Source of the DNA: a bacterium UBP2_UBA2255
Lineage (GTDB): Bacteria; Edwardsbacteria; AC1; EtOH8
DNA length: 64,000 bases
Reading direction: 5' to 3'
Assembly (NCBI GenBank): GCA_002347565.1
Contig: DDXR01000049.1
Location: 42,302 to 106,301, forward strand
The notes below the pieces were generated by a model that was given only the letters and a program-made list of their open reading frames with translations, did not search any database and was not told the origin of the DNA. Position 1 is the stretch's first letter. Every line of letters starts with the position of its first letter. The position numbers and the translations under genes were made by a program. Positions 9,794 to 64,000 of this stretch are shown here, in pieces.

Positions 9794-9797
9794 CGCT

Positions 9798-10742: not shown

Positions 10743-10870
10743 TACACCCATAAAAAGCCCACGTCATTGTTCTGGAATACGTGCCCGTTTGGGAAATCTG
10801 CAAACGACACGAGCGAAGATACCTATGGTTTTTCGGCTGTAGTGCGCCACCAGCCTATAGCAGTATAGCT

Positions 10871-11068
10871 ATGATAGTGATCGACGCCCGGAAAAACTGC
10901 GATTCCGGTATAGGCATCTAGCTGCGTAGCCTCATCGACCATCTTAATGGCCGGCACGATCTGACCGTTCTGATGGCTCGCGATATGGTGTTGTCGGACA
11001 AGTTCGCGGAAACGTACATATATTCTCGTCAGCAGCCAACCCAACACCATGAAGACGTATTGAAATAA
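10871..11068 (+). pseudogene. truncated glycosyltransferase-4 N-terminal fragment with in-frame TAG (MIVIDARKNCDSGIGI*LRSLIDHL...)
   Basis: First ~65 codons resemble N-terminus of the GT4 gene at 12505 (MIAFDARMSERSGIGSYVRNLL); amber codon at 10919-10921 replaces the conserved aromatic; frame ends at TAA 11066-11068 with no remaining catalytic domain. Confidence 0.5.
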
Positions 11069-11289
11069 TGTGGAAGTGCTCGGTCTGCGATGTGTTTATC
11101 TTACCATGCAACAACATCCCGTTGCTGACAATGCCGACGAGGCGGCTGATCGTGTTCATTCAGGATATCCAGCATCTGCCGGCGAGCGCTGGGTATGGGC
11201 CGCAAAACAGGCGTGTGCTAGAATCATGATCAACTTGTTATTCCCGTTGGTCTTTGCCAAAGGGTAACCGCTTGAATGGATACAGTAAA

Positions 11290-12153: not shown

Positions 12154-12504
12154 CGAACGATTATCCCATCAGCTCAGGAACACCCGGGGAAAGCCATTTA
12201 CGGTCAGTTCGACTTCTCTCGATGACCGGGAATACGCACCCCGAGCGGAGTCGAGAAATGCAGTAACGTGCCATCCTGAATATATGGGATAATCACTCAA
12301 TAGAGATATGCCACCCGCAGGCTATTTCTTCTGTTCGCCGCGGCGGCATCGGATGGTCGGTTTGATGAAGAAGCACGAGAGTTACAACTCAATGAACTAC
12401 AATTCTCTTGATATCCGGTTGCAGGTTATACATAGCGCCACGAAATAGTAATGACAAGCTAGTTCTATAAAAGAAATGCAGTTTAAAAAAGTGATGGTGC
12501 CGGC

Positions 12505-13602: not shown

Positions 13603-14747
13603 CCCGCGAACGGAACAACCGGGTTTATAAATGGCTGGACGGACACATTGGACCGCCGATCATCGCGATGAAGGCAGCGCTTGATATGCGGCAACGGCCT
13701 TGCGATCAGCGTGTGTCCAACCGATCACCCAGGATCGCATTGGTGAAAACGGAATCCATAGGCGATACGTTGCTGACCGAACCGCTGATTAAAAGCATCA
13801 AACATGTCCATCCCGCGGGTGCGATCACGTACATCTGCATGTCGAACAACGTTGACGCGGTCAGGGGTCTGGATGGGATCGATGAGATCATCATCTTTGA
13901 TCTCGGGGCACCGCTACGATCGCTGTGTCGATTGACGAGGCTGCGACCGTTCGACGTGGTGATTGACTGCGGTTCCTGGGCCAGGATCAACAGCGTGATT
14001 GCAACCACAGTGCCCGCCGCATGCCGTGTGGGCTTCCGTACCGCCAGCATGCACCGGCACTATGCCTACGATATCGTCGTTGACCATGATTCCGGCATCC
14101 ATGAACTTGACAACTATCGCAACCTGCTACGGGCCGCCGGCATCACCCCGCAGCGGTCGGCACCGCGCTATGTCATCGGCCGGCAAGCTGCCGGGGCACC
14201 GGTGTTCCCGTTGCCGTCGCTGGGTGAATACGTCGTCCTGCACATTCATCCCGGCGGCGCCCAGCGGCATCTGAAGTGCTGGCCGGATGCCCAATGGATC
14301 GAACTGGGGAGGCGTCTGATCGGCGCCGGGATCCGCATCTATATTAGCGGCGGTCGCGGCGATGCCGTTGGTGCAGGGCGCATTGCGAACCTGATCGACG
14401 GCGTCCACTGCGCGTCGCTGGCTGGTCAGCTGTCTCTGGATCAAACCGCGCAGCTGATCGCGGGATCCCGTCTGCTGGTCACCGTTGACACCGGTATCAT
14501 GCACCTCGGAGCAGCCGTCGGGGCGAATGTCATCAGTCTACATGGACCGACCTCGCCACGACGGTGGGGCGGCATCGGCCGATCGGTCACGCCAGTTTGC
14601 ACGACGGCCAGCTGTGCCCCATGCATCAACCTGGGCTTCGATTCACCCTGTCGGCACGGCGGCTGCATGGACCTCATCACTGTTGATGCCGTGTTCACTC
14701 AGGCAGCCGAACACCTGAAACGCACCGGACGCGGACGGCCATCGTAG
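13599..14747 (+). CDS. glycosyltransferase family 9 (heptosyltransferase-like)
   Basis: GT9 features: KTESIGDTLLTEPL, ISGGRGD, VTVDTGIMHLGAAVG, LHGPTS; start uncertain (GTG 13599 overlapping, or downstream ATG 13668). Confidence 0.65.
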   Translation: MTRERNNRVYKWLDGHIGPPIIAMKAALDMRQRPCDQRVSNRSPRIALVKTESIGDTLLTEPLIKSIKHVHPAGAITYICMSNNVDAVRGLDGIDEIIIFDLGAPLRSLCRLTRLRPFDVVIDCGSWARINSVIATTVPAACRVGFRTASMHRHYAYDIVVDHDSGIHELDNYRNLLRAAGITPQRSAPRYVIGRQAAGAPVFPLPSLGEYVVLHIHPGGAQRHLKCWPDAQWIELGRRLIGAGIRIYISGGRGDAVGAGRIANLIDGVHCASLAGQLSLDQTAQLIAGSRLLVTVDTGIMHLGAAVGANVISLHGPTSPRRWGGIGRSVTPVCTTASCAPCINLGFDSPCRHGGCMDLITVDAVFTQAAEHLKRTGRGRPS

Positions 14748-14761
14748 CCGGGAGCGAAGTT

Positions 14762-15736
14762 ATGAGCGGCACTAACGCCGGTACAGCGTACCTGGTCACC
14801 GGCGGCAGCGGGTTCATCGGCGGGCACCTGATCGTCGACCTGCTACGGGACCCGGGCACCGCCCGGGTGGTCAATATCGACCTGCGCCCGTACCCGGGCG
14901 CGGTCGACCCTCGCCTGGAGACGGTGATTGCGGACATCAGAAAGCCGCTGGCGGCCGGCCTGCCGGCGGGGGTCGGCACCTGCTTCCACCTGGCCGCGGT
15001 CTGCCGCGAGCCGGGCCACCGGCGGGAGGAGTACTTCGAGACCAACCATCGCGGGACCGGCAACGTGATCGACCTGTGCCGGCGACAGGGCATCCACAGC
15101 ATCGTCTTCACCAGCACCATCATGGTCTATTCGCCCGGGGACGCCCCGTGCGACGAGTCGGCGACCACTCGGCCCAACACTGCTTACGGGGAATCGAAGC
15201 TGCTGGCGGAGCGCGAGCTGGAGCGGTGGGGGGCGGAGGGGCGACACCTGCGGATCGTACGGCCCGGCGTGGTGTTTGGTCCGGGCGACTACGGCAACTT
15301 CATCCGATTGCACCGCGCGCTGCGGAGCAACCTGTTCTGCTACGTCGGCCGCCGCACCACAGTCAAGGGCAGCGTCTACGTCCGTGACGTGGTGTCGTGC
15401 CTGCGGTTCATGGAGACGGCGGCGGCGCGGAGCGCTGTCTACAACTGCGTGTTCCCGGGGCGGTACACCATCGGCGAGATCGTCGCCGCCATCTGCACCG
15501 CCGAGGGATGGCGGCGTTGGGTGCCGGTTCTGCCGTACCGGCTGATGCGGGCCCTGGCGGCGGTCGGGCCCTGGCTGGACGCGGCCGGGCTGCGCAACGG
15601 GCTCCATCCCCGCCGCATCGACAAACTGTACCAGTCAACTGACGCGGTGCCGCAGGCGCTGGCGCGCGATGGGTTCGGGTTCCGGTACGATCTGCGTGCC
15701 GCTGTCCGGGAGTGGCTGTGCGGCGCGGCATCCTGA
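14762..15736 (+). CDS. NAD-dependent sugar epimerase/dehydratase (extended SDR)
   Basis: TGGSGFIGGHL Rossmann motif, YGESK catalytic Y-x3-K. Confidence 0.75.
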   Translation: MSGTNAGTAYLVTGGSGFIGGHLIVDLLRDPGTARVVNIDLRPYPGAVDPRLETVIADIRKPLAAGLPAGVGTCFHLAAVCREPGHRREEYFETNHRGTGNVIDLCRRQGIHSIVFTSTIMVYSPGDAPCDESATTRPNTAYGESKLLAERELERWGAEGRHLRIVRPGVVFGPGDYGNFIRLHRALRSNLFCYVGRRTTVKGSVYVRDVVSCLRFMETAAARSAVYNCVFPGRYTIGEIVAAICTAEGWRRWVPVLPYRLMRALAAVGPWLDAAGLRNGLHPRRIDKLYQSTDAVPQALARDGFGFRYDLRAAVREWLCGAAS

Positions 15737-17248: not shown

Positions 17249-19010
<1,762 letters not shown>

Positions 19011-19068
19011 GACCGGCATGAAGGCACGGCGATCCCGGGCCGCCGGCCGGCCCGGCAGGGGCGGCTGA

Positions 19069-47984: not shown

Positions 47985-48014
47985 TTGACAGCACCAGCGG
48001 TTTTACGTTACAAT
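47985..48014 (+). promoter_or_regulatory. sigma70-like promoter TTGACA-18nt-TACAAT upstream of tRNA-Leu
   Basis: TTGACA 47985-47990, TACAAT 48009-48014. Confidence 0.45.
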
Positions 48015-48077: not shown

Positions 48078-48164
48078 GCCGGGATGGTGGAATTTTGGTA
48101 GACACGTACGTTTGAGGTGCGTATGGCGCAAGCCATGTGGGTTCAAGTCCCACTCCCGGCACCA
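48078..48164 (+). tRNA. tRNA-Leu (anticodon GAG), class II with long variable arm
   Basis: Manual fold: 7-bp acceptor GCCGGGA/TCCCGGC, 3-bp D stem, anticodon stem TACGT/GCGTA with loop TTGAGGT (U33, G37), variable arm ATGGC-GCAA-GCCAT, T arm GTGGG-TTCAAGT-CCCAC, discriminator A, encoded CCA. Confidence 0.8.
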
Positions 48165-49940: not shown

Positions 49941-50318
49941 ATGGACATGGCGAACTACGAGCAGCGGTTGAAGGAGCTGGTTGACAGCATCCCGGGTGCG
50001 GCGTCGGCCAACCTGACCGGCATCGACGGCATCGGGATCGCGGCCAGCAGTCTCGATCCGACGCTGGACCCGACGCTGGCCGACGCCGAGTTCGCCACCA
50101 TGCTGGCCACCGCCAACCGCGCCGCGGGCAACCTGCAGGTGGGTGACATCTCCGAGCTGATCTTCGCCACCGACAGGATCATGATCATCCTCAAGATGGT
50201 GGGCCAGGATTTCTACCTAGCGGTGGGGCTGCCGGCGGCCGCCGGCAACCTGGGGATGGCCCGGCTACAGATGCGCTGGGCGGTGGACGATTTCGCCAAG
50301 ATGCTGTACGCCGCGTGA
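49941..50318 (+). CDS. roadblock/LC7 (MglB-like) domain protein
   Basis: ~125 aa with alternating hydrophobic pattern (ISELIFATDRIMIILKMVGQDFYLAVGL) typical of roadblock/LC7 fold. Confidence 0.6.
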   Translation: MDMANYEQRLKELVDSIPGAASANLTGIDGIGIAASSLDPTLDPTLADAEFATMLATANRAAGNLQVGDISELIFATDRIMIILKMVGQDFYLAVGLPAAAGNLGMARLQMRWAVDDFAKMLYAA

Positions 50319-50328
50319 GGAGGCTTTT

Positions 50329-50673
50329 GTGACGAACCACCAAAATGGATACCACGACCAGGCGTCCGAGATCATCAGGTCGCTGGCCGAGCGCGAGCGC
50401 GAGCTGTCCCGTTCGCTGGAGTCGGCCGAGGCCGAGGCCCGGCAGGCGATCGAGCGGGCCGAGGCGGCTGCGTCCGGCATTCGCGCAGCCGCTGCCGAGT
50501 CCGAGCGCCGCCTGGCGGCCGAGCATGCCGGGAGCTTGGCGGCGCTGGCAGATCAGATCGCCGCTGCCCGGGCGGCCCGGGCCGGGCAGGAGGCCGAGGC
50601 CCTGGCGGCCGCTGCCGCGGCCCGGATGGAGGCGGCCGTGTCGGAAGTCGTCAGGCGCGTGCTGCCGGAGTAG
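50329..50673 (+). CDS. coiled-coil protein, probable A/V-type ATPase peripheral-stalk subunit (G/H-like)
   Basis: 114-aa Ala/Glu/Arg-rich predicted coiled coil immediately upstream of subunit I, matching position of subunit G in Thermus-type operons; GTG start with GAGGAGG RBS. Confidence 0.5.
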   Translation: MTNHQNGYHDQASEIIRSLAERERELSRSLESAEAEARQAIERAEAAASGIRAAAAESERRLAAEHAGSLAALADQIAAARAARAGQEAEALAAAAAARMEAAVSEVVRRVLPE

Positions 50674-50679: not shown

Positions 50680-52578
50680 ATGATCGTCCCCATGCTCAGG
50701 GTGCTGGTGGCTGGTCCCAAACCGCTGATGGCCGCCGTGATCGAGACCATCCAGCGGCAGGGGCGGGTCCACATCGCGGCCGCGCGGGGCCAGGAGCAGG
50801 GCGTTTGCGCCGGCGGGCTGGCCGAGGCCGAGGCCGGGCGCCGGCAATCGGTCGAACGGGCCGCTTCCGAGATCGACGGCCTGCTGGCCCTGCTTGGGTT
50901 CCGGGGAAGGCCGGCACGACAGACCGGGGAACCGGACTGGGGCGCGCTGGAGGCCGGGCTGCGCGAACGCCAGGAGCGCGTGCGGGCGCTGGTGCGGCGG
51001 CGGCTGGAGCTGGAGGATGAGCTGGCGCTGATAGCCAGTTACCAGCAGGCGTTCGAGGCGCTCTCGCCGCTGCTGTCGCGGCTGGAGGGGAGCGCCAGGC
51101 TCCGGGCCTTCGGGTTCATCATCAAGGGGACCGATGCCACGGCTGCCGAACCGCTGCGCCGCGAGCTGGGCAGGGCCACGAGCGGCCGGTGCGAGGTGTT
51201 CGCCCAGGCGCTGGGCGACGGCCGGGTCGCCGTGCTGGCGGCGCACCACGCCGGGGACACCGACCGGGTGCGGGGGTTCTTCGCCAAGCTTGGCGTCAGC
51301 GAGCTGAAATTGCCGTCGACCGTTACCGGCCTGCCGATGGCAGAGGCGGTGCGGCAGCTCAAGGGAAAGCTGCGCGACCTGCCCGGGCAGATCCGGGCCG
51401 CGCAGGAGGATATCGGCAGCCTGGCCGGGCAGTGGGGGCCGGAGCTGGCGGGGCTGCGCCTGCTGGCGGGCGACGTGCTGGCGAGGCTGGCCGTGCGGGC
51501 CCAGGTCGGGGAAAGCCGGTTCACCTTCCTGCTGCAAGGTTACCTGCCGCAGGACGACCTGCCCGGCCTCCGCGACGCCCTGCGCGCCGCCTACCAGGAC
51601 CGGGTCACGGTGCAGACGATAGAGATCGGACACCGCGACGCGGCGCAGGTCCCGGTGATGCTGAAGAACAACCGGCTGGTCAAGCCGTTCGAGATGATGC
51701 TGTCGATCTTCAACCCGCCGCGCTACGGGACTGTCGACCCCACGCCGTTCATCGCGTTCTTCTTCCCGCTGTACTTCGGCTTCATCGTCGGCGACCTCGG
51801 CTACGGCCTGGTGATGCTGGCGCTGGCGCTGGCGCTGCGCTGGAAGCTCGGTCAGCGGCCGTTGGTCAGGCCGCTGACCACCATTTTCGCGCTGTGCGCC
51901 GCCTGGACCGCCGCGTTCGGCGTCGTCTACGGCGAGCTGTTCGGCGACCTGGGCGAGCACATGCACTGGCTGCATCCCATGGCCGACGCGGTCAACCGCA
52001 TGAGGCCGGAGTCGCTGATGCCGCTGTTCTGGTCATCGATCGCCGTCGGCGCGTTCCAGGTGATGGCCGGGTTCGGGATCATGCTCTACCAGGGTCTGAG
52101 GCATCGCGACCGGCACCATATCCTTGAGCCGCTGGCCTTCGTCATCGGCATCGCCGGCGTGGCCGGCTTCGCAGCCTCCTGGATGTTCGGGGTCATCCCG
52201 TCCTCCTTCATGGCGCCGTCGCTGGCCCTGCTGGTCGCCGGCGCCGGCCTGCTTGGGTGGCTGGCCGGCGTGGCAGGGCCGATCGAGATCTTCGGCGCGG
52301 TCGGCAACATTCTGTCCTTCGCCCGTTTGTTCGCGATCGGATTGTCCGCGGCATATCTGGCGTATGCGGCCAACCTGATCGGCCGCACCATCGGCGGCAT
52401 TCCGGGGATTCTGGTGGCGGCCCTGGTAGTGCATCCGCTGTTCTTCGCCCTGGGCCTGATCAGCCCCATCATGCAGTCGTTCCGTCTCCAGGTCGTGGAG
52501 TTCTTCACCAAGTTCAAATACCACGATTATCCCGGCAAACAATACAAACCATTCAAAACCACAGGAGAGACCCCATGA
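50680..52578 (+). CDS. atpI: A/V-type ATP synthase subunit I (a-subunit)
   Basis: ~630 aa: N-terminal hydrophilic coiled-coil half, C-terminal 7-8 TM half. Confidence 0.8.
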   Translation: MIVPMLRVLVAGPKPLMAAVIETIQRQGRVHIAAARGQEQGVCAGGLAEAEAGRRQSVERAASEIDGLLALLGFRGRPARQTGEPDWGALEAGLRERQERVRALVRRRLELEDELALIASYQQAFEALSPLLSRLEGSARLRAFGFIIKGTDATAAEPLRRELGRATSGRCEVFAQALGDGRVAVLAAHHAGDTDRVRGFFAKLGVSELKLPSTVTGLPMAEAVRQLKGKLRDLPGQIRAAQEDIGSLAGQWGPELAGLRLLAGDVLARLAVRAQVGESRFTFLLQGYLPQDDLPGLRDALRAAYQDRVTVQTIEIGHRDAAQVPVMLKNNRLVKPFEMMLSIFNPPRYGTVDPTPFIAFFFPLYFGFIVGDLGYGLVMLALALALRWKLGQRPLVRPLTTIFALCAAWTAAFGVVYGELFGDLGEHMHWLHPMADAVNRMRPESLMPLFWSSIAVGAFQVMAGFGIMLYQGLRHRDRHHILEPLAFVIGIAGVAGFAASWMFGVIPSSFMAPSLALLVAGAGLLGWLAGVAGPIEIFGAVGNILSFARLFAIGLSAAYLAYAANLIGRTIGGIPGILVAALVVHPLFFALGLISPIMQSFRLQVVEFFTKFKYHDYPGKQYKPFKTTGETP

Positions 52579-52919
52579 AGAAGTTCCTGGCGATCGTGAT
52601 GCTGTCCGTCATCGCGATGACCTTCGCCTCGGTGGCGTTGGCCCAGCATGCCGCACCGGCCGCGGAACAGCAGAAGGCGGACTCCCCGGCCAAGCCGCTG
52701 GACAACATCGTGATCTGGAAGGCCCTCGGCGCGGCGCTGGCCATCGGCGCCGCCGCTTTCGCCACGGCCTGGGCCCAGAGCAAGATCGGATCGGCCGCGG
52801 CCGGCGCCATCGCCGAGAAGCCGGAGATCGGCGGCGTGATGATCGTGCTGGAGGCCCTGCCCGAGACCATCATCATCCTGGGCTTCGTGATCGCCATCAT
52901 GATCGTGGGGATGAAGTAG
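52575..52919 (+). CDS. atpK: A/V-type ATP synthase proteolipid subunit K (c-subunit), single hairpin with N-terminal signal-like segment
   Basis: Gly/Ala-rich TM hairpin (GAALAIGAAAFATAWAQSKIGSAAAGAIAEKPE / LEALPETIIILGFVIAIMIVG) with conserved Glu; ATGA overlap with atpI. Confidence 0.75.
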   Translation: MKKFLAIVMLSVIAMTFASVALAQHAAPAAEQQKADSPAKPLDNIVIWKALGAALAIGAAAFATAWAQSKIGSAAAGAIAEKPEIGGVMIVLEALPETIIILGFVIAIMIVGMK

Positions 52920-52968: not shown

Positions 52969-53541
52969 ATGAATTCCGAACTACTGAAGGTCATCGAGGC
53001 CGAGGCCGCGGCCGAGCGCCAGCGGATCACGGACGCGGCCCGGGAGCGGGCCGGCGAGATCATCTCCTCGGCCGAGACCGCGGCCCGGCGGCTGCGCGAC
53101 AGCGGCGAGCGCGCCCGGGATGAGCAGGAACGCGCGGTCAGGCTCAAGACGGCCGCGGCCGCGGAACTGGCGGCATCGGCGCTGCGGCTGGAAGCCAAGC
53201 GCCGGGTGCTGGATTCGGTGTTCGACGCCGCCCGTCGGCGTCTGGCGCAGCTGTCCGGCCCGGAGTACCGGCGCGTCCTGAAGTCGCTGATCGCCGAGGC
53301 GGCGGCGGGCTTCGATGGGCAGTTCCGGCTGCGGGTGCGCCGGCAGGACGCCAAGCCGGCCGCCGAGATACTGAAGGAGTTGGGTCTGGAGGCGGAGGCC
53401 GAGGCCGAGGGCGCGGATGACGGCGGCGTGGTCGCGTCCGACCCCCAAGGCCGGATGATGGTCTGCAACAGGTTCGCCGACCGCCTGGAGCGCGCCCGTC
53501 CCGAGCTGCTGCCCGCGCTGTCGCGCATCCTGTGGGGATGA
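52969..53541 (+). CDS. atpE: A/V-type ATP synthase subunit E
   Basis: 190-aa charged helical N-terminus plus C-terminal globular part, operon position. Confidence 0.7.
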   Translation: MNSELLKVIEAEAAAERQRITDAARERAGEIISSAETAARRLRDSGERARDEQERAVRLKTAAAAELAASALRLEAKRRVLDSVFDAARRRLAQLSGPEYRRVLKSLIAEAAAGFDGQFRLRVRRQDAKPAAEILKELGLEAEAEAEGADDGGVVASDPQGRMMVCNRFADRLERARPELLPALSRILWG

Positions 53542-53544: not shown

Positions 53545-54603
53545 ATGCCGTCGGACTACGGGTACATCAACGCCCGGATCAAGGGATGGCACAGCCGCCT
53601 GCTGACGGCCGGCGCAGTGACCGAGATCGCCGACCTGCCTGATTTTCCGGCTTTTCTGAAATGGATGGCCGCCGGTCCGTACGCGGCCGATTGGCAGCTG
53701 GCCCGTGCCCGGTTCGAGGGATTGGAAGCGGTCGAGCAGGCGCTGGAAGCGAATTTCGGCCAGACCACCCGGCGGTTGTTGGCGGTCTCGGACGGCGCCC
53801 CGCGCCGCCTGATCGGGATCATGCTGCGGCGCTGGGACCTGGCCAACCTCAAGACGGTGGTCCGTGGCATCGCCCGCCAGCACGGTTCGCAGGAGATCGC
53901 CCGCAACCTGTGGCCGGCCGGCAACCTGGTGATGGTCCGCCTGAGGGAGCTGGCCCAGCAGCGCGACCTGCGCGGCGTGGCGGACGTGCTGGCCACCTGG
54001 CGCGACCCGCTGGCGCAGCCCCTGATTGAATGCCTGGCAGGGTTCGACCGGGACCACGACCTGGTGCCGGTCGAACTGGCGCTGGACCGGTTCCATTTCC
54101 GCGACTCGCTGCGGCGGCTGCGAGGCCCGGAGAGCAACCGCAGCCTGATGGCGGGCCTGCTGCGGCGGGAGATCGACCTGGCCAATGCCAAAACGGCCAG
54201 GAGGCTGGCCGGTCAGGCCGCGGATCAGGCGCGGGATCCCCGGGCCTATGTGATCGACGGCGGCGAAGTCATCGATGCCGAGGCCGTGGCCGAATTGCTC
54301 GATCCCAGGACGCGCAGCCGCCGGCTGCGTGCCCTGCGGGCATCGCCCTACCACGGCTATCTGGCCGGCACCGGCGACCCGGTCCGGCTGGAGGATGAAC
54401 TCGACCATTCGTTCTGGCGCCACTGCGCCCGGCTGTACCGGGCCCGGCCGCTGGCGATCGACGTGGCCGTCGGCTTCATCTGGCGGAAACAGTACGAGCT
54501 GGTCAACCTGCGCCTGCTGGCCCGGTCCAAGTTCTACGGGCTGCCGCCGGAAGAGATACGCAGCCAGCTGTTCCTGGACGTTGCGGGCGGCCGCTGCGGC
54601 TGA
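53545..54603 (+). CDS. atpC: A/V-type ATP synthase subunit C (d-subunit)
   Basis: YGYINARIKG N-terminus and all-helical ~350 aa like Thermus AtpC. Confidence 0.75.
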   Translation: MPSDYGYINARIKGWHSRLLTAGAVTEIADLPDFPAFLKWMAAGPYAADWQLARARFEGLEAVEQALEANFGQTTRRLLAVSDGAPRRLIGIMLRRWDLANLKTVVRGIARQHGSQEIARNLWPAGNLVMVRLRELAQQRDLRGVADVLATWRDPLAQPLIECLAGFDRDHDLVPVELALDRFHFRDSLRRLRGPESNRSLMAGLLRREIDLANAKTARRLAGQAADQARDPRAYVIDGGEVIDAEAVAELLDPRTRSRRLRALRASPYHGYLAGTGDPVRLEDELDHSFWRHCARLYRARPLAIDVAVGFIWRKQYELVNLRLLARSKFYGLPPEEIRSQLFLDVAGGRCG

Positions 54604-54675: not shown

Positions 54676-55884
54676 ATGAACCGCATCGCACTCGGCGCCA
54701 TTGCCCTGGTCCTGACGGCCGGACTGGCCGGCGCGGCGCCGGAAGCGCCGCCGGCCGCGCCGCCCGGTGAGGCGTCTGCCGCCGGACTGACGGCGGTCGA
54801 CACTCCCAACGACGAGGGGCGGTCGATCACCGTCACCTGGGCCCGGTCGCCCCGGGACATCGGCGATGCCGCCGTGTTCAAGGGCTACCAGATCCTGCGG
54901 GCCGACCACGCCGATGGGCCGTTCGCCGAGGTCGGGTTCGTCATCGGCGGCAAGACGGAGTTCCGCGACAACGTGGCCGAGGGCGCGGCGCACTGGTACC
55001 GCGTGCGCGCCGTGGCCGGCAGCGATTCATCGGAAACGGGGACGGCCGGTCCGGTCCGGGCGTCGGCCCAGTGGTTCGACGCCGGCCGCAGCAACGTGCT
55101 GATCGTGACCGTCCTGCTGGCGTTCCTGATGATCTGGTACATCGAGCGGGCCAAGAAGGGCGAGGAGCTGTTCATCCGGAAGATCCACGGCCTGGACGCC
55201 ATCGACGAGGCGGTGGGGCGGTCCACCGAGCTGGGCAAGCCGGTGCTGTTCTCGTTCGGCCTGGGCGAGATCAAGGACATCGTGACCGTGGCCGCGCTGT
55301 CAATCCTGCGCCAGGTCGCGGTGCGCTGCGCCCAGCACGGCACCGAGCTGCTGGTCCCGAACTGGGACCCGCTGGTGATGGCCGCGGCCCAGGAGACCAT
55401 CCAGCAGGCCTACTCCGAGCCGGGCCGGCCCGACCTGTACAAGGAGGGCAACGTCAGCTTCCTGACCTCGGATCAGTTCGGGTACGCCGCGGGCGTCGAC
55501 GGCATGATGATCCGGCAGAAGCCGGGGGCGGTGTTCTTCATGGGCTACTTCTATGCCGAGGCCCTGCTGATGTCGGAGACCGGCCACTCGGTGGGCGCGA
55601 TCCAGATCGCCGGGACCACGGCGGTCACCCAGCTGCCGTTCTTCATCGCCTCCTGCGACTACACCCTGATCGGCGAGGAGATGCTGGCTGCCAGCTGCTA
55701 CCTGAAGCGCGATCCCCAGCTGCTGGGGTCGATCAAGGGCGAGGATTTCGTCAAGGCCATCCTGATCGTCGGGTTCGCGGCGCTGGCCGTGGTCGGCACC
55801 GCCGGCGCCCTGCTGGCCGGCGCCGGGCGTCCCTGGCTGTCCGGCGTGTTCCAGGCCATCATCCAGTGGTTCGTGACCGCATGA
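54676..55884 (+). CDS. hypothetical bitopic membrane protein: signal peptide, FN3/Ig-like exodomain, TM helix, ~270-aa C-terminal domain
   Basis: Cleavable signal (ALVLTAGLAGAAP), beta-rich segment (SITVTWARSP...HWYRVRAV), TM (VLIVTVLLAFLMIWYI), C-terminal domain ending in second hydrophobic segment; no family recognised. Confidence 0.5.
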   Translation: MNRIALGAIALVLTAGLAGAAPEAPPAAPPGEASAAGLTAVDTPNDEGRSITVTWARSPRDIGDAAVFKGYQILRADHADGPFAEVGFVIGGKTEFRDNVAEGAAHWYRVRAVAGSDSSETGTAGPVRASAQWFDAGRSNVLIVTVLLAFLMIWYIERAKKGEELFIRKIHGLDAIDEAVGRSTELGKPVLFSFGLGEIKDIVTVAALSILRQVAVRCAQHGTELLVPNWDPLVMAAAQETIQQAYSEPGRPDLYKEGNVSFLTSDQFGYAAGVDGMMIRQKPGAVFFMGYFYAEALLMSETGHSVGAIQIAGTTAVTQLPFFIASCDYTLIGEEMLAASCYLKRDPQLLGSIKGEDFVKAILIVGFAALAVVGTAGALLAGAGRPWLSGVFQAIIQWFVTA

Positions 55885-55921
55885 CGCGCGCGTCACTGAT
55901 CGAAATGAAGGAGCGGCGCCC

Positions 55922-56554
55922 ATGAAAAAAGAGATCCCATTGGCCATCACCTTCCTGACCGGCCTGATCATCGTGGTCACGTTCTTCATCCCCCACCAGC
56001 CGCTGGGGACGATGCAGCAGCGGCTGCTGATCTGGTACTCGATCGTGCTGGGGTTCACCATGCTGCTGGGCGTGGACAGCTTGCTGCGCAGCAACCTCAA
56101 GCGGCTGGTGGGGCGCACCCCGGGATGGCCGTACGCCGCAGTGCTGCTCGCCGGGTTCGCGTTCACCCTGGCGGCCGGGATCTACAACTGGGCCACCACC
56201 AGGTCGCTGCTGACCCTGGGGTCGCCGTTCATGTTCGTCTACACCTTCGTGATCGTGCCCCTGCAGGCGACCATGTTCGCGGTGCTGGCGTTCTTCATCG
56301 CGTCGGCCGCCTACCGCGCCTTCCGGGCCCGCACCCTGGAGGCGACCCTGCTGCTGGTCACCGCCGCCATCGTCATGATCGGGCGGGTGCCGGTGGGGGC
56401 CGAGCTGTGGGACAAGCTGCCGGTCCTGGCCGACTGGATCATGGAGGTCCCCCAGATGGCGGCCAAGCGGGGCATCGTCATCGGCGTGGCCCTGGGGACC
56501 ATCGCCATGTCGCTGCGGGTGATCCTGGGCCTGGAACGGACCTACCTGTCATGA
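55922..56554 (+). CDS. hypothetical polytopic membrane protein (~6 TM)
   Basis: Hydrophobicity pattern; no family recognised. Confidence 0.5.
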   Translation: MKKEIPLAITFLTGLIIVVTFFIPHQPLGTMQQRLLIWYSIVLGFTMLLGVDSLLRSNLKRLVGRTPGWPYAAVLLAGFAFTLAAGIYNWATTRSLLTLGSPFMFVYTFVIVPLQATMFAVLAFFIASAAYRAFRARTLEATLLLVTAAIVMIGRVPVGAELWDKLPVLADWIMEVPQMAAKRGIVIGVALGTIAMSLRVILGLERTYLS

Positions 56555-56576
56555 AGCGCAGCAGAGGAGAACGACG

Positions 56577-57398
56577 ATGAGATTCTTCGAGCGGATCGCC
56601 GCCATCGACCGGCGGCTGATCTACCTGGCGCTGGCGCTGTCGGTGCTCATCCCCCTGCTGTTCAAGATGGTGCTCCCGACCCGCGTCTCCGAGCCGGTGC
56701 GGGCCGCCTACCGGTCGATCGATGACCTGCCCGAAGGTTCCGTGGTGATGATCTCGGTCGACTACGACGCCTCGTCGGCGCCGGAGCTGCAGCCCATCTA
56801 TCTCGGCATCCTGCAGCACTGCTTCGCCAAGAAGCTCAAGGTGCTGGTGCTGGGGCAGTGGGTGATGGGGACCCCCTTCGGCGAGCTGGGCTTGGGCCGG
56901 ATCGCGCCGCTGTACGACGCCGTCTACGGCGTCGACTACGTCAACCTGGGGTACCGGCCCGGCTACCGCGCCCAGATGGTGGGGCTGGGCCGCGAGATTC
57001 GCGACTTCTTCGCGGTCGATTCCCGCGGCATCACCCTCGACAGCTTGCCGATGATGGCCGGGGTCCACAATTACAACCAGATCGACCTGCTGGTGGGTCT
57101 CGAGGCCGGCCAGGCCGGCGACGAGTGGATCCAATTCGCCGGCGCCCGCTACGGCGTCGACATCGTGATCGGCGCCACCGGCGTGGTGGCCCCCGACAAG
57201 TTCCATTACCTGCAGGCCCGGCAGATCCGCGGGCTGATCGGCGGCCTGCAGGGCGCGGCCGAGTACGAGACCCTGATCGGCAAGCCGGGCGCCGCCATCG
57301 CCGGCATGGTCGCCCAATCCTGGGCGCACCTCCTGCTGCTGGCGTTCATCGTCCTGGGCAACGTCGGATATTTCGTGATGCGGAGGGCCAAGCCATGA
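56577..57398 (+). CDS. hypothetical membrane-anchored protein (N- and C-terminal TM helices, central soluble domain)
   Basis: TM at residues ~14-32 and ~245-265; no family recognised. Confidence 0.5.
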   Translation: MRFFERIAAIDRRLIYLALALSVLIPLLFKMVLPTRVSEPVRAAYRSIDDLPEGSVVMISVDYDASSAPELQPIYLGILQHCFAKKLKVLVLGQWVMGTPFGELGLGRIAPLYDAVYGVDYVNLGYRPGYRAQMVGLGREIRDFFAVDSRGITLDSLPMMAGVHNYNQIDLLVGLEAGQAGDEWIQFAGARYGVDIVIGATGVVAPDKFHYLQARQIRGLIGGLQGAAEYETLIGKPGAAIAGMVAQSWAHLLLLAFIVLGNVGYFVMRRAKP

Positions 57399-58018
57399 CG
57401 CAGATCATCGGCACCTGGATCGCGGCCGGGCTGACCCTGGCCATCTTCTCCTTCCTCTACAAGGACAACCCGTTCTACAAGGTGGCGGAGCACCTCTACG
57501 TCGGTGTCTCGGCGGCCTACGCCGTGCTGTACGCCTGGGCCAACGACGTCTACCCGATGCTGGTCGAACCGATGTTCCTGGGCCGGGGCGCCGTCACCAC
57601 GGCCGACCGCTGGATCCTGCTGGTGCCGCTGCTGTTCGGCCTGATGATGCTGGCGCGGTGGGTGCCGAGGATCGCCTGGCTGTCGCGCTGGTCCATCGCA
57701 CTGACGGTAGGCATCGCGGCGGGCCTGGGCATCACCGGCCAGATCCAGGGCATTCTGCTGCCGCAGGTGGCCGGCACCCTGGTGCCGCTGACATCGGCCA
57801 ACAACGTTCTGATGGTGGCCGGCGTCATCGCCACGCTGGTGTACTTCTATTTCTCGATCGCCCAGAAGGGCGCGGTCAAAGTGGGCAGCCGGCTGGGCAT
57901 GGTGTTCATCATGGTCGCGTTCGGCGCCTCGTTCGGCTATACGGTGATGGCCAGGATCTCGCTGTTGATCGGGCGCCTGCAGTTCCTGGTGTTCGACTGG
58001 CTCCACGTGGTCAAGTGA
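57398..58018 (+). CDS. hypothetical polytopic membrane protein (~6 TM)
   Basis: ATGA overlap with upstream gene; hydrophobic throughout. Confidence 0.5.
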   Translation, partial: TQIIGTWIAAGLTLAIFSFLYKDNPFYKVAEHLYVGVSAAYAVLYAWANDVYPMLVEPMFLGRGAVTTADRWILLVPLLFGLMMLARWVPRIAWLSRWSIALTVGIAAGLGITGQIQGILLPQVAGTLVPLTSANNVLMVAGVIATLVYFYFSIAQKGAVKVGSRLGMVFIMVAFGASFGYTVMARISLLIGRLQFLVFDWLHVVK

Positions 58019-58052
58019 CGGCCGCCCCAACCGTCGAGAGGAGGATCCTGCG

Positions 58053-58355
58053 ATGAACGACCTGACCGCTGTCAAGGGGGTGCGGGCCTGGGCGGTGTTC
58101 GCCAACGACGCGCCGGTGGAGGGCGAGGCCAAGGGCGAGCTGGGGGACAAGGCGGGCGAGATCGAGCAGTTCTGGGTGAACGCGGCCTCGGTGATCGCCA
58201 GCAACTTCCGGCTGGGCCAGCTGCGCGAGGTGGCCGTGGCCGGCCCCGACCGGCAGGTGCTGATGCTGCTGGCCGGCGACCGGACCGTGGTGTGCGAGGT
58301 CGATCCCGCCGCCGACTGGAAGGCGCTGGCGGGCGAGATCCGGAGGAAGATGTAG
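58053..58355 (+). CDS. small soluble protein, possibly roadblock/LC7-like
   Basis: 100 aa; alternating hydrophobic pattern (VRAWAVFAND..., VLMLLAGDRTVVCEV) reminiscent of roadblock fold; tentative. Confidence 0.4.
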   Translation: MNDLTAVKGVRAWAVFANDAPVEGEAKGELGDKAGEIEQFWVNAASVIASNFRLGQLREVAVAGPDRQVLMLLAGDRTVVCEVDPAADWKALAGEIRRKM

Positions 58356-58356
58356 C

Positions 58357-58905
58357 ATGGCACTTGCAGACGCGATAGCTGCTGGCAGGGTGGCGGGCCT
58401 CAAGGGCGCGTTCCTGGTGCCGGCCGGCGGCGACATCCAGGCGCAGGGCTGCGACCAGTCGGCCGCGACCCCCAGCGCCGAGCTGGCCCGCCAGATCCAG
58501 GACATCGTCGGCCTGCCGACGCTGGACACCGTGTGGCTCGCCGCCGAGGGCGGCATCGCCGGCCTGCGGCTGGCCGCCGGGGCGACGGCCGGGGTGCTGC
58601 TGGGGCCGGACGGGGCGGCCGGGCCCGCCCGCAAGCTGCTGGACGCGTTGCTGGCAGCCCCGGCGGCCGGAACGGGCGGCGGCGACGCCATCAACCAGAT
58701 CCGCAAGGTCGCCACCGAGTACCTCACCGACTTCGCCGAGACCGCGCTGATGATCCAGATCAAGCAGTCGGGTCTGGACGAGAAGAACCCCAGCCCCGAA
58801 AGCCTGGCCAAGCTGGCCGGCGGCCTGGAGAAGGCGGCGCTGATGATCATCGGCCCCTCGCGAGCCAAGGAGATGGGCGAGAGGCTGAAGAAGGCGATAT
58901 CATGA
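58357..58905 (+). CDS. hypothetical soluble protein (Gly/Ala-rich N-terminal half, possibly roadblock-like; helical C-terminus)
   Basis: Starts 2 nt after the preceding stop; no family recognised. Confidence 0.4.
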   Translation: MALADAIAAGRVAGLKGAFLVPAGGDIQAQGCDQSAATPSAELARQIQDIVGLPTLDTVWLAAEGGIAGLRLAAGATAGVLLGPDGAAGPARKLLDALLAAPAAGTGGGDAINQIRKVATEYLTDFAETALMIQIKQSGLDEKNPSPESLAKLAGGLEKAALMIIGPSRAKEMGERLKKAIS

Positions 58906-58998: not shown

Positions 58999-59322
58999 AT
59001 GAATAGGCTGGCCGTCATCACCGACAGCGGCACCGCCACCGGGTTCCGGATGGCGGGGGTGGACACCTTCGAGGTCGCCTCCGAACCGCAGCTCCAGGCC
59101 AAGCTGGCCGAGCTGATCGCGACGGGCGACTACGGGCTGATCGCCGTCAACCAAGACCTGGCGGCGGACCTGGGCGAGGAGGTCGACCGCATCATGAAGA
59201 ATCGCGCCCTGCCGGTGATCCTGCCGTTCCCGGTGCCCAAGGGCGGGACGGTGGAGAGCGGCGAGGCCTACCTCAATAAGCTGGTCAAGGACGCCATCGG
59301 GTTCTACGTCAAGCTGAAGTGA
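58999..59322 (+). CDS. atpF: A/V-type ATP synthase subunit F
   Basis: 107 aa with VITDSGTATGFRMAGV and LPVILPFP motifs matching Thermus/Enterococcus subunit F. Confidence 0.8.
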   Translation: MNRLAVITDSGTATGFRMAGVDTFEVASEPQLQAKLAELIATGDYGLIAVNQDLAADLGEEVDRIMKNRALPVILPFPVPKGGTVESGEAYLNKLVKDAIGFYVKLK

Positions 59323-59336
59323 CCGCGGTGAAATCG

Positions 59337-59807
59337 ATGACGTTCCTGGGATACCTCTTCGTCGCGTGCTGCTTCGCCGGTTGCAGCAAGGACCCGGCCG
59401 CGCCTGGAGCGACCCCCACGTTGGACACTGCCACGCTGACGGATTCCCTGCATGCAGTCGCCATCGGCATGTCGCGCCGGGAATGCCAGATCGACATCCA
59501 GCTGGCGTATTCGATCAATCGTTACCCGCTGATCAAGGCCGGCTCCGACTCGGATATGGTGACCGTCTACCTGCACAACGGCAAGGCGATATCGACCGAC
59601 ACCCCATACAACGCTGGCGCGATCGTCAGGCAGGATTACCGGAACGGTGACCTCCTGGCGAGATCGGTGCAAGGGGGATGGGGCTCGGACACGACGGCAC
59701 ACGTCCTGATGGCTTCCGATACCCTGACCACCATCGACAGTGCCACGGTCGACGTGTGGTGGTGGTTTGATGGCGGCCGCCAGGTGCACCACCGGCTTTT
59801 CCCGTAG
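59337..59807 (+). CDS. hypothetical lipoprotein
   Basis: Signal peptide with FAGCS lipobox; no family recognised; ORF extends to GTG 59319. Confidence 0.45.
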
Positions 59808-59851: not shown

Positions 59852-61594
<1,743 letters not shown>

Positions 61595-61680
61595 CTGCCG
61601 ACGAACGGTATCCACTATATCGTAGACGCTATCCAGTAGAGGATACTGAGTAGTGAATACTGAATAGGGAAGGCAACAGT

Positions 61681-62595
61681 ATGCGTTTAGTCACCCGCTC
61701 CGATTTCGACGGTTTGATCTGCGGCGTCCTGCTGCAGGAGGCCGGCATCGTCGACTCGTCCCTGTTCGTCCACCCCAAGGACGTCCAGGACGGCAAGGTC
61801 GAGGTCACGGCCAACGACGTGCTGGCCAACGTGCCCTACGCCAAGGGCTGCGGCCTGTGGTTCGACCACCACATGTCCGAGGAGGAGCGCGCCGCCTTCC
61901 CCCACGACTTCAAGGGCGCGTCCCTGCCGGCGAAGAGCTGCGCCCGGGTGATCTACGAGTACTACGGCGGCCGGGAGAAATTCCCGCGGTTCGAGGACAT
62001 GCTCAAGGCGGTGGACAAGTCCGACTCCGGCGGCCTGTCGCTGGAGGAGGTGGCCCAGCCCACCGGCTGGCTGCTGCTGGCCTTCCTGATGGACCCGCGC
62101 ACCGGCCTGGGCCGCTTCTCGGACTACCGCATCAGCAACCTGCAGCTGATGCAGGACCTGATGGAGCGATGCCGCACCATGGCGATCGCCGAGATCCTGG
62201 AGCTGCCCGACGTCACGGAGCGGATCAGGCGCTACCGCGAGTCGGAGTGGCTCTACAAGGAGATGATCAAGAGCAACGCCAAGGTCCACGGCAACGTGCT
62301 GGTGGTGGACCTGCGCAACGTGGAGAACATCGCCACCGGCAACCGCTTCGTGGAGTACGGCATGTTCCCGGCCATCAACATCTCGGTGCGGGTGATGTGG
62401 GGCGTCAAGAAGCAGAACGTGGTGTTCGCCGTGGGACACAGCATCCTCAACCGCACCTCCAAGACCAACGTCGGCTCGCTGATGCTGAAGCACAACGGCG
62501 GCGGCCATCCCAAGGTGGGCACCTGCCAGGTGCCGACCGACCAGGCCGACGCGGTGCTGGCCGAGCTGGTCAGGAAGATGAACGCCGACGGCTGA
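61681..62595 (+). CDS. DHH-family phosphoesterase (DHH + DHHA1-like, GGGH motif)
   Basis: DFDGLICGVLL (DxD), LWFDHHM (DHH), MLKHNGGGHPKVGTCQV (GGGH) motifs. Confidence 0.7.
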   Translation: MRLVTRSDFDGLICGVLLQEAGIVDSSLFVHPKDVQDGKVEVTANDVLANVPYAKGCGLWFDHHMSEEERAAFPHDFKGASLPAKSCARVIYEYYGGREKFPRFEDMLKAVDKSDSGGLSLEEVAQPTGWLLLAFLMDPRTGLGRFSDYRISNLQLMQDLMERCRTMAIAEILELPDVTERIRRYRESEWLYKEMIKSNAKVHGNVLVVDLRNVENIATGNRFVEYGMFPAINISVRVMWGVKKQNVVFAVGHSILNRTSKTNVGSLMLKHNGGGHPKVGTCQVPTDQADAVLAELVRKMNADG

Positions 62596-62607
62596 GGGGC
62601 CTCCCGA

Positions 62608-62946
62608 ATGACCGGTCCAGACCACGATACTTTCCGCACACTGTACAAGATCGTCGGGGGCCTCGATAAAAAATTCCCCGGCGGGAACGACCCGTTCCGG
62701 ATCTTGTCCCGCCTGATGGAGGAATCCGGGGAACTGGCGAGCGAGATACACCACTTCGAGGGCCTGAAACGCCATCGCCGGCAGGACCCGCCGGACAAGG
62801 GCCATCTCGCGAAGGAGTGCATGGACATCTTCACCGCGGTGCTCCATATCGCGAAGCACTACGGGATCGAAAAAGAGCTGTCCGCCCGGATCGACAAGCA
62901 CTACCGCATGGTCATTTCCGAGGGATTGGTCGAACCTCTTGAATGA
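62608..62946 (+). CDS. MazG-like nucleotide pyrophosphohydrolase (small all-alpha NTP-PPase)
   Basis: EExGELA.E motif (LMEESGELASEIHHFEG) and downstream acidic helix (LAKECMDIFTAVLHIAKHYGI). Confidence 0.6.
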   Translation: MTGPDHDTFRTLYKIVGGLDKKFPGGNDPFRILSRLMEESGELASEIHHFEGLKRHRRQDPPDKGHLAKECMDIFTAVLHIAKHYGIEKELSARIDKHYRMVISEGLVEPLE

Positions 62947-63061
62947 TGTATGTTTTCAGGCTGAACCATGACCACGATACTATGCGGCATTCTATTTCTG
63001 ACGAGCTATCGTTGCATCGCAGCGTAGCGATCGACTGAACGACTACAGATTTGGAACTACA

Positions 63062-63508
63062 ATGGCACCGTTCAACAAGACCAAGAAATTCGGCAAGCCG
63101 TCCTTCAGCCGGCCGGACAGCCGGGCCCCGCGGAAGTTCGGCGCCGGACCGCGCCCGGCGGGCGGGCCCAAACGCTTCGGCGGGGGGCCGCGCGCAGCGG
63201 GCGCCCGGACGTTCGGCAAGCCGCCCTTCGACAAACAGCTGTTCAAGGCCACCTGCGCCAGCTGCGGCAATCCCTGCGAGGTGCCGTTCCGGCCGTCCGG
63301 CGAGAAGCCGGTCTACTGCCGCGACTGTTTCCGCCGGCAGGAGGGCGACGGCCCGGCACGCCCCGCGTTCCGCCGCGACGACGCGCCCCGGCCGATGCGC
63401 CCCGCGTTCCGCCGTCCCGAGCCGGCCGGCCCCGGCAACCTGGAGAAGGAGCTGGAGCGCATCAACCTCAAGCTGGACCGGATCCTGCGGGCACTAGAAG
63501 GCAATTGA
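63062..63508 (+). CDS. Arg/Gly-rich basic protein with C4 zinc ribbon (CxxC-x17-CxxC)
   Basis: N-terminal repeats FGKP/FGAGPRP/FGGGPRA, CASCGNPCEVPFRPSGEKPVYCRDC zinc ribbon, C-terminal helix. Confidence 0.5.
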   Translation: MAPFNKTKKFGKPSFSRPDSRAPRKFGAGPRPAGGPKRFGGGPRAAGARTFGKPPFDKQLFKATCASCGNPCEVPFRPSGEKPVYCRDCFRRQEGDGPARPAFRRDDAPRPMRPAFRRPEPAGPGNLEKELERINLKLDRILRALEGN

Positions 63509-63524: not shown

Positions 63525-64000
63525 ATGGACCTGACCACCAAGAAATACCAGAGCATCTCCTACGTCTCCGGGCCGCTGTTGTTCGTCGACAACGCCAAGG
63601 GCCTGTCCTACGGCGCCATCGTCGAGATCGAGCTGCCCGACGGGTCGACCAAGGGCGGCCAGACCATCGAGGTCTCGGAGAAATACGCCGTGATCCAGGT
63701 GTTCGAGGAGACCCGCGGCCTGGACCTGGCCAAGAGCTCGGTGTCCCTCAAGGAGGACGTGGCCCGGATCCCGGTGAGCCGCGACATGATCGGCCGCCGC
63801 TTCAACGGACTGGGCGAGCCCATCGACGGCCTGCCGCCGATCGTGCCCGAGCAGCGCCTGGCCATCATCGGCGAGCCGATGAACCCCACCTCGCGGGCCA
63901 AGCCCGAGGCCTTCATCCAGACCGGCATCTCCACCATCGACGGCTTCGCCACCCTGGTGCGCGGACAGAAGCTGCCGATATTCTCCGGCGCCGGCCTGCC
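63525..64000 (+). CDS. atpB: A/V-type ATP synthase subunit B, N-terminal 158 codons (3' end outside window)
   Basis: Manual translation MDLTTKKYQSISYVSGPLLFVDNAKGLSYGAIVEI...GQKLPIFSGAGLP closely matches V-type B subunits; not in supplied ORF table because it runs off the window. Confidence 0.9.
   Translation, partial: MDLTTKKYQSISYVSGPLLFVDNAKGLSYGAIVEIELPDGSTKGGQTIEVSEKYAVIQVFEETRGLDLAKSSVSLKEDVARIPVSRDMIGRRFNGLGEPIDGLPPIVPEQRLAIIGEPMNPTSRAKPEAFIQTGISTIDGFATLVRGQKLPIFSGAGL

Follow-up and report, generated by a model that had tools for sequence, protein, structure and literature searches.

The V/A-type ATPase cluster of the bacterium UBP2_UBA2255, from the candidate phylum Edwardsbacteria, is interrupted between its catalytic subunit genes atpA and atpB by three genes. 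The stretch analysed, called the window hereafter, comprises 64,000 nts of contig DDXR01000049.1 (assembly GCA_002347565.1; positions 42,302 to 106,301 of the forward strand), and positions are numbered from its first nucleotide unless another locus is named. The first of the three genes encodes a protein related to PggH, a DHH/DHHA1 phosphodiesterase, and comparison with related lineages indicates that this gene is an old, fixed resident of the ATPase operon, whereas the space between it and atpB is a slot for variable cargo, filled here by a MazG-like gene and a gene encoding a CxxC-x17-CxxC zinc-ribbon protein. The tie of pggH to the ATPase probably consists of shared expression in an operon that tolerates insertions, and not of a physical or allosteric partnership.

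Three genes separate atpA and atpB

In the window, atpA (59852..61594, plus strand) encodes a 580-aa V/A-type catalytic subunit A, identified by the Pfam domains ATP-synt_ab, _Xtn, _VA_C and _N and by the models NF003220 (880 bits) and TIGR01043 (912 bits). It is followed on the same strand by the PggH-like gene (61681..62595, 304 aa), a gene for a small MazG-like protein, putatively an all-alpha nucleoside triphosphate (NTP) pyrophosphohydrolase (62608..62946, 112 aa), a gene for a basic, Arg/Pro/Gly-rich CxxC-x17-CxxC zinc-ribbon protein with a C-terminal helical tail (63062..63508, 148 aa), and the 5′ part of atpB (63525..64000; NF003235, E 7e-60), which encodes subunit B. The full atpB gene encodes 470 aa and was recovered on an extended contig (L001, 11845-13257). 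From the stop of atpA to the start of atpB there are thus 1,930 nts with three genes, in place of the usual adjacency of A and B, and the four intergenic spacers measure 86, 12, 115 and 16 nts. The first-pass annotation, made from the letters of the sequence, had already placed three genes between the two subunits; all three proved to be intact plus-strand open reading frames (ORFs) with exactly the boundaries it gave, and the motifs that it had read (DHH, GGGH, CxxC-x17-CxxC and a basic Arg/Gly-rich composition) are all present.

The three ORFs are genuine genes under purifying selection and not chance ORFs, because their GC content at third codon positions (GC3; 0.97 for pggH, 0.79 for mazG and 0.90 for the CxxC gene) stands apart from that at second positions (GC2; 0.38, 0.35 and 0.60), because homologues occupy the same position in relatives, and because the pairwise ratios of nonsynonymous to synonymous divergence (dN/dS) against these homologues are below 1 for all three (PggH 0.29-0.46, MazG 0.05-0.22, CxxC 0.49-0.68). 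Transposase, integrase and tRNA genes are absent from the atpA-atpB gap. None of the three proteins matched a defence model in PADLOC, and a reading of the window's own gap genes as a defence island was dropped on this ground.

The position of pggH is fixed in related lineages

Related loci, designated here by L numbers, were gathered by exact-protein look-ups, a genome scan with PggH and a metagenome scan with an upstream operon gene, after which the operon proteins were mapped onto them. The nearest named relatives are Candidatus Edwardsbacteria, whose PggH proteins are 78-81% identical to that of the window. Eight gap arrangements were recovered, and in each of them atpA is directly followed by pggH. 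It is followed by mazG and the CxxC gene in the window and in L094/L095, by a nitroreductase gene, mazG and the CxxC gene in L092, and by the same three in the order mazG, nitroreductase, CxxC in L093. A second pggH copy, a small ORF and the CxxC gene follow in L012 and in L161/L162. Elsewhere pggH is followed by a low-GC gene encoding a 147-aa membrane protein (L009/L010/L098, from Edwardsbacteria RIFOXYD12_FULL_50_11), by two small membrane ORFs (L096), or by a candidate defence gene of the PDC-S14 type (L099).

Divergence among these lineages is deep, with identities of 84-93% for atpA, 37-76% for atpE and 77-92% for PggH, and the local GC content of the loci ranges from about 43 to 70% in 400-nt windows. 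The codon usage of pggH matches that of its neighbours, with GC3 values of 0.97, 0.97 and 0.96 for pggH, atpA and atpB. The presence of pggH after atpA in all recovered relatives argues that it is not a recent insertion. Of 80 PggH loci in other phyla (with Desulfobacterota, Geobacter, Acidobacteriota, Planctomycetota and Paenibacillus represented), not one has ATPase genes nearby; from this and from the constant position of pggH within the group, the linkage is clade-specific and old. Hence the possibility raised at first pass, that the three genes are a recent unrelated insertion absent from relatives, fails for pggH, while mazG and the CxxC gene behave as exchangeable cargo. In the same way, the arrangement of A, three genes and B is conserved only in part, with pggH fixed in all relatives, mazG confined to a sub-clade, and the CxxC gene missing from three of the eight arrangements.

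Several of the related loci have features of their own. The tandem pggH genes of L012 (9055-9969 and 10001-10915) encode proteins 63% identical to each other, both with all catalytic and specificity residues, and L161 contains a pair of adjacent 304-aa genes (2764-4628); the tandem could have arisen by an old duplication or by a second capture. In L099, the slot between pggH and atpB is occupied by a gene for a 280-aa protein (18187-19029) that matches the PADLOC model PDC-S14 at E 4e-100, showing that a defence-type gene can lodge inside an ATPase operon. Contig L003 is 98.4% identical to the window lineage up to position 4943 and 96.3% identical to the RIFOXYD12 type from position 3541, with the junction falling within atpB, which is highly conserved. 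The contig is probably a chimera, assembled from a sample with both lineages in it, and possibly a real recombinant.

The first gap gene encodes a PggH-like protein

The product of the first gap gene aligns over its full length with PggH of Vibrio cholerae (PDB 7d62; phmmer E 5.3e-98, 51% identity over 303 aa, residues 2-304 on 21-324), and no other solved structure comes close to this match. PggH is a pGpG-specific DHH/DHHA1 phosphodiesterase that carries out the final step in the degradation of cyclic di-GMP (c-di-GMP) (PMC8861645). The DHH motif lies at residues 62-64 of the window protein and the GGGH motif at 273-276. The residues of the Mn2+ site are kept as D10, N50, H63, H64 and D115 (Asp15, Asn55, His68, His69 and Asp121 in V. 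cholerae), the supporting residues as D8 and D62 (Asp13 and Asp67), and the residues of guanine specificity as R6, R140, N221, R222 and H276 (Arg11, Arg146, Asn227, Arg228 and His282), the last group in all 15 aligned sequences. In total, all 12 of the published metal, catalytic and specificity residues (R11, D13, D15, N55, D67, H68, H69, D121, R146, N227, R228 and H282) are conserved in the window protein, and 12 of 13 other aligned homologues retain the complete functional set. The exception is the copy of L094 (1893-2807), in which Asn takes the place of Asp13; in the V. cholerae enzyme, a D13A substitution abolishes activity (PMC8861645).

The protein is therefore predicted, from its sequence, to hydrolyse pGpG into two GMP. 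Its 51% identity to 7d62 also suggests an intertwined dimer with a rigid helical linker from the DHH domain to the DHHA1 domain. General profile libraries recognise the family poorly: the Pfam DHH model (PF01368) does not match, DHHA1 reaches 18.4 bits, below its cut-off of 25.9, and no NCBIfam model matches either the PggH or the MazG protein. Other identities were rejected. NrnA structures match the protein at E 0.23-0.56, over 34 residues, and an assignment to the GdpP or PPX1 type is at odds with the missing PF01368 match and with a length of 304 aa free of additional domains, the GdpP type needing an N-terminus with transmembrane, PAS and GGDEF parts. The initial description of a DHH/DHHA1 phosphoesterase was thus right, and the subfamily search narrows it to the PggH type, away from NrnA, GdpP and PPX1.

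The cargo between pggH and atpB

The second gap protein carries the acidic motif EExxE...ExxD (EESGE at residues 38-42 and ECMD at 70-73), in which E38, E39, E42, E70 and D73 do not vary across the nine homologues. With the single sequence, the evidence for a MazG protein is borderline (Pfam MazG 21.9 bits for a cut-off of 22; PDB 5ie9 at E 2.3e-4); a profile of nine sequences matches 5ie9 at E 1.4e-7 and YpjD (2gta) at E 5.7e-7. The small MazG-type pyrophosphohydrolase announced by the first-pass annotation can hence be described as MazG/YpjD-like at the profile level, and it would hydrolyse some, possibly non-canonical, NTP. Its subfamily is small: a search of 1.84 billion proteins gave 413 representatives at E ≤ 1e-3.

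Among the related loci, mazG is found only in the sub-clade of the window. Its GC3 of 0.79, set against 0.97 for pggH, argues that it is the younger gene. Synonymous divergence (dS) against L093 and L094 amounts to 2.1-3.5 for mazG and 0.13-0.25 for the adjacent pggH. It is thus best described, from these comparisons, as a relatively recent cargo of the gap. A viral origin was considered and dropped, as none of 2.9 million viral contigs contains a relative. It is also worth mentioning that a direct repeat, GACCACGATACT (12 nts exact, 15 of 17 overall), flanks almost the entire mazG ORF at 62620-62636 and 62970-62986. The downstream copy reads ccATGACCACGATAC, resembles a relic gene start and is kept in L092. 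An interpretation of the repeat as a target-site duplication was rejected, since repeats of similar length arise by chance in this 2.3-kb stretch.

The third gap protein has an isoelectric point of 10.7 and contains 21 Arg, 22 Pro and 17 Gly in 148 residues. Its ribbon, CASC-x17-CRDC at residues 65-89 (C65-x2-C68-x17-C86-x2-C89), places the basic CxxC-x17-CxxC protein seen at first pass in the family TIGR04272/PF23477, with 58.6 bits for TIGR04272 (cut-off 36) and 60.5 bits for PF23477 (zf_Tbcl_2, E 1.2e-16, cut-off 27). Small CxxC-x17-CxxC proteins of Methanosarcina mazei were shown by inductively coupled plasma mass spectrometry (ICP-MS) to bind zinc (PMC12704099). In other lineages, genes of this family adjoin cold-shock, ABC-F, DEAD-box or GreA genes, a weak hint of a role related to RNA or transcription, while here the gene lies in an ATPase operon. 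The protein presumably binds zinc and probably also nucleic acid. Homologues are found in the same slot in L092, L093, L094, L012 and L161, and five of the eight arrangements include the gene, which by its distribution is an older, frequent but dispensable resident.

Transcription signals around the gap

Consensus scans detected neither an intrinsic terminator nor a sigma-70-type promoter on the plus strand from 58.9 kb to where the ATPase genes end. Between 47.8 and 59 kb, the same strand contains only a weak terminator-like site within the coding region of m207, a gene of the operon described below, and one promoter. The latter is a near-consensus sigma-70 site, TTGACA-18-TACAAT (11 of 12), at 47985-48014, located 64 nts before a tRNA-Leu(GAG) gene (48078-48164), the sole tRNA gene of the window; its detection indicates that promoters of this organism are within reach of the scan. 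The first-pass annotation had named a terminator after atpA and a separate promoter for atpB as findings that would speak against its reading; the scan, which covers sigma-70-type promoters, found neither. The cluster looks like one long unit, and pggH is probably co-transcribed with the ATPase genes.

The spacer between atpA and pggH contains an imperfect palindrome or hairpin (61611..61670, plus strand) with the core CGCTATCCAGTAG ... ATACTGAATAGGG and a predicted RNA folding energy of -28.3 kcal/mol (z -2.58). It abuts a Shine-Dalgarno-like motif, GGGAAGG, and has no U-tract. The core CGCTATCCAGTAG...TACTGGATAGGG is kept in the four closest lineages, L092, L093 and L094 included, and the corresponding spacers of more distant lineages differ in sequence and are also strongly structured (z down to -4.0). 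There are no compensatory changes among the four sequences, hence an RNA element is indistinguishable from a DNA operator. A reading of CTATCCAGTAG as an operator motif was rejected, the motif not being enriched elsewhere in the window (6 matches, 5.7 expected). A second conserved non-coding stretch lies directly 5′ of the CxxC gene (62994..63061, plus strand) and has a near-identical sequence among the window, L092 and L093, an agreement that does not extend to L094 and L012. No known RNA family of Rfam was found in or between the three genes, whether the whole window was searched at the gathering score or the 2.3-kb region at E ≤ 1.

A fixed resident in an insertion-tolerant operon

From the observed gene identities, residue conservation, gene order, purifying selection and absence of detectable terminators and promoters, we infer co-transcription, an enzymatic specificity and a role for the hairpin as follows. 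The ancestor of the clade would have acquired pggH once and retained it as the first gene after atpA, where it is probably read through from the ATPase promoter, while the conserved hairpin at its ribosome-binding site could set its level below that of atpA. With an Mn2+ site made of D8, D10, N50, H63, H64 and D115 and a narrow guanine-specific pocket formed by R140, N221, R222 and H276, PggH would cleave pGpG into two GMP and so complete the turnover of c-di-GMP. The slot after it turns over, containing in the window a MazG-like recent arrival and an older, dispensable zinc-ribbon protein of the RGG type. The view of an insertion-tolerant operon follows from the occupation of the C-F, F-A and B-D junctions as well, with the contents of F-A varying between lineages. 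As to the nucleotides involved, a local nucleotide, (p)ppGpp- or nanoRNA-related function had been proposed at first pass; the c-di-GMP/pGpG pathway is more likely than (p)ppGpp.

Several observations weigh against this explanation. The pGpG specificity leans on one characterised enzyme with 51% identity, and among the 80 loci of the wider PggH family, only four have HD-GYP genes and two have GGDEF genes within 5 kb. These six loci are too few for the neighbourhood to be used as support for a c-di-GMP role of the family. In addition, the GGDEF motif is absent from the 64-kb window. Co-transcription was deduced from a promoter scan limited to sigma-70-type sites, and the conserved stretch of about 65 nts that precedes the CxxC gene, within the 115-nt gap, could serve as an internal promoter or a 5′ leader. 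The AlphaFold2 (AF2) model of the MazG-like protein is all-helical, with five helices, and has a mean predicted local distance difference test (pLDDT) score of 73, and Foldseek found no match to it in the PDB below E 3; because the model is mediocre and this search empty, the assignment depends on the profile match and the motif. Finally, a genuine functional tie with the ATPase, for which the present explanation sees no need, would account equally well for the fixation of pggH at one position amid turnover.

Such a tie would make PggH, possibly with the other two proteins, a dedicated regulator, either of the ATPase or of the membrane module within its operon, with local pGpG or c-di-GMP controlling the rotary enzyme. 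This appears unlikely, although the position right after atpA is constant in every lineage while the cargo changes, and one lineage has two tandem copies there. By analogy, c-di-GMP binds the F1/V1-related export ATPases FliI and HrcN at the subunit interface (PMC4591828). The Roadblock/LC7-like proteins and the conserved membrane cassette of the operon further suggest that the complex may be more than a housekeeping ATPase. On the other hand, none of the 80 PggH loci of other phyla lies near ATPase genes, which argues against a general tie of the family; neither the operon nor the window yielded a domain of a c-di-GMP synthase or receptor; and binding of c-di-GMP by A or B subunits of V/A-type enzymes is not reported in the literature searched. 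Moreover, where an operon is seldom rearranged, a gene that is useful would keep its position without any functional link. A direct regulatory link of PggH to the ATPase is speculation.

A second alternative concerns the biochemistry, and supposes that the DHH protein is a general nanoRNase, a pAp phosphatase or an exopolyphosphatase, acting with MazG in nucleotide salvage or house-cleaning. Close PggH homologues are indeed named ‘exopolyphosphatase’ or ‘nanoRNase/pAp phosphatase’ in public records (P0002, P0016, P0018, P0026, P0041 and others), DHH/DHHA1 enzymes are in general broad in specificity (PMC8861645), and the family is only weakly associated with c-di-GMP genes. However, the residues of guanine recognition and of the narrow pocket (equivalents of R146, N227, R228 and H282) are kept in all sequences checked, the Pfam DHH model does not match, NrnA structures score at E 0.2-0.6, and the database names are automatic and older than the work on PggH. 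A different activity thus has a small chance of being the right one, and the names ‘exopolyphosphatase’ and ‘nanoRNase’ are probably outdated for this family, because of the match to 7d62 and the full conservation of its functional residues.

Still less likely is a recent arrival of the whole trio as selfish or neutral hitchhikers with promoters of their own: the deviant GC3, restricted distribution and high dS of mazG, the repeat around it, and the presence of a defence candidate, low-GC membrane ORFs or a nitroreductase gene in the slot elsewhere are countered by the occurrence of pggH in all lineages with fully ameliorated codon usage and 77-92% identity (37-76% for atpE), by the CxxC gene in five of eight arrangements, by the lack of terminators, promoters, transposase, integrase and tRNA genes in the gap, and by the absence of mazG relatives from viral contigs, so that such an origin is refuted for pggH, weak for the CxxC gene and plausible for mazG.

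Insertions at other junctions of the ATPase cluster

The explanation by shared expression in an insertion-tolerant operon draws on the organisation of the whole cluster. Upstream of atpA, gene identities were obtained from Pfam and from genes called on the source contig (49941..59807). The cluster is headed by a Roadblock/LC7-like gene (49941-50318), followed on the plus strand by an atpG/H-like gene (50329-50673), atpI (50680-52578), atpK (52575-52919), atpE (52969-53541), atpC (53545-54603), a six-gene insert (DUF6754, m210, p273, m207, p100 and p182; 54676-58905), atpF (58999-59322) and a lipoprotein-like ORF (59319-59807). A metagenome contig of 150 kb that encodes an identical PggH (ENA ERZ27315059, k141_21422) extends the cluster past the window, where atpB is followed by a gene for a 282-aa secreted protein, atpD, a 221-aa lipoprotein-like ORF, two genes for GWxTD proteins and two aromatic-lyase genes. 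The V/A-type subunit set is complete (G-like, I, K, E, C, F, A, B and D, by Pfam or NCBIfam), on one strand and in the usual order, and four junctions are occupied: C-[6 genes]-F-[1]-A-[3]-B-[1]-D.

The B-D junction contains the gene of the 282-aa protein, which has a signal peptide (L001, 13334-14182), and the 221-aa lipoprotein-like ORF lies after atpD (L001, 14870-15535). The insertion between B and D is seen in every related locus that reaches past atpB, with 51-72% identity where the match is full-length. The F-A junction is variable. A lipoprotein-like ORF is found there in the window, L092, L096 (slot at 13326-14712) and L099 (slot at 13334-15292), with one more ORF in L096 and two more in L099, while the junction is occupied in L012 by a low-GC gene for a DUF6036/DUF2204 nucleotidyltransferase (6503-7015) and is empty in L010.

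The C-F insert, also found in L009-L012, L092 and L096-L102, encodes a DUF6754 protein of 402 aa, three further proteins (210, 273 and 207 aa), of which two are clearly membrane proteins, and soluble ORFs of 100 and 182 aa. Its first four genes form a cassette in 63 metagenome loci (m210 35-85% identical), which lies inside an ATPase operon only in the Edwardsbacteria-like group (m210 at least 74% identical). In L104, the one distant locus inspected closely, the cassette is followed by genes for a DUF4388/PATAN protein and for ExbB-ExbD-ExbD-TonB, and several other loci contain it as a tandem duplicate.

The protein that heads the cluster (49941-50318) matches Pfam Robl_LC7 at E 1.3e-4, just below the cut-off. 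For p100 (58053-58355), a single-sequence AF2 model of low confidence (pLDDT 64) gave Foldseek matches (E 1.5e-4 to 1e-3, TM-scores of 0.5-0.62) almost exclusively to the Roadblock fold, in the LAMTOR subunits of Ragulator, Asgard Roadblock proteins, MglB and MglC. A Roadblock homology of p100 and p182 was also sought by sequence and rejected, with nothing in Pfam and hhalign probabilities of 12% and 0.1%. Two Roadblock/LC7-like proteins in the cluster would be reminiscent of Ragulator on the eukaryotic V-ATPase. The cluster could accordingly be imagined as a signal-regulated machine, in which a rotary ATPase is joined by the DUF6754 cassette and Roadblock proteins, and PggH gives local control through c-di-GMP or pGpG; built on adjacency and one low-confidence fold match, this picture is very doubtful. 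The literature searched contains no mention of DUF6754, nor does it connect V-type ATPase operons with any phosphodiesterase of pGpG or c-di-GMP.

Elsewhere in the window, a run of ORFs at 4666-13602 has a low GC3 (0.59-0.78, compared with about 0.9 in the rest), suggesting a horizontally acquired island.

Implications and comparison with known systems

The three gap proteins belong to known families (PggH, MazG-like and TIGR04272), and the novelty lies in the architecture. Operons of rotary ATPases normally belong to the gene clusters with the most rigid organisation. Here, a candidate-phylum lineage tolerates insertions at four subunit junctions, with one gene for a predicted pGpG hydrolase fixed between the catalytic subunits; in the searchable literature, no description of an interrupted A-B arrangement with clade-fixed insertions was found. 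If the linkage is transcriptional only, it would be a natural example of how an essential operon can serve incoming genes as a landing pad, one of them domesticated and the rest exchanged in a turnover slot. If it is functional, it would be the first connection of c-di-GMP-pathway enzymes with a V/A-type ATPase and would point to an undescribed ATPase-associated membrane machine. In addition, PggH-like may provide a sharper name for thousands of entries labelled ‘exopolyphosphatase’.

Canonical V/A-type operons, such as atpGIKECFABD in Thermus thermophilus, ntpFIKECGABDHJ in Enterococcus hirae and ahaHIKECFABD in M. mazei, have A adjoining B. The cluster of the window has the same subunit set, order and strand but differs by the extra genes at four junctions and by the leading Roadblock-like gene.

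Compared with V. cholerae PggH (VCA0593-type, PDB 7d62; PMC8861645), the window protein is collinear over its full length, of the same length class (304 aa), and shares the motifs and site residues, with Gly120 replaced by Ser. It differs in phylum and setting, its gene being placed between atpA and atpB. The MazG-like protein resembles YpjD-type MazG proteins (PDB 2gta and 5ie9) in size (103-119 aa), in a profile match at about E 1e-7 and in the EExxE...ExxD metal-binding motif, but identity is about 25-30% by eye, its subfamily is small and distinct, and its score falls slightly short of the Pfam gathering threshold. With the CxxC small proteins of M. mazei, the third protein has in common the zinc-ribbon domain of 36 residues, to which it adds a basic N-terminus with FGKP/RxFG repeats and a C-terminal helix (PMC12704099). 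The regulation of FliI, HrcN and ClpB2 by c-di-GMP (PMC4591828) is comparable in that both cases join the c-di-GMP pathway to an F1/V1-related ATPase fold. In that case, however, the dinucleotide binds the ATPase directly, whereas in the Edwardsbacteria cluster, the link is the adjacency of a gene for a predicted pGpG hydrolase.

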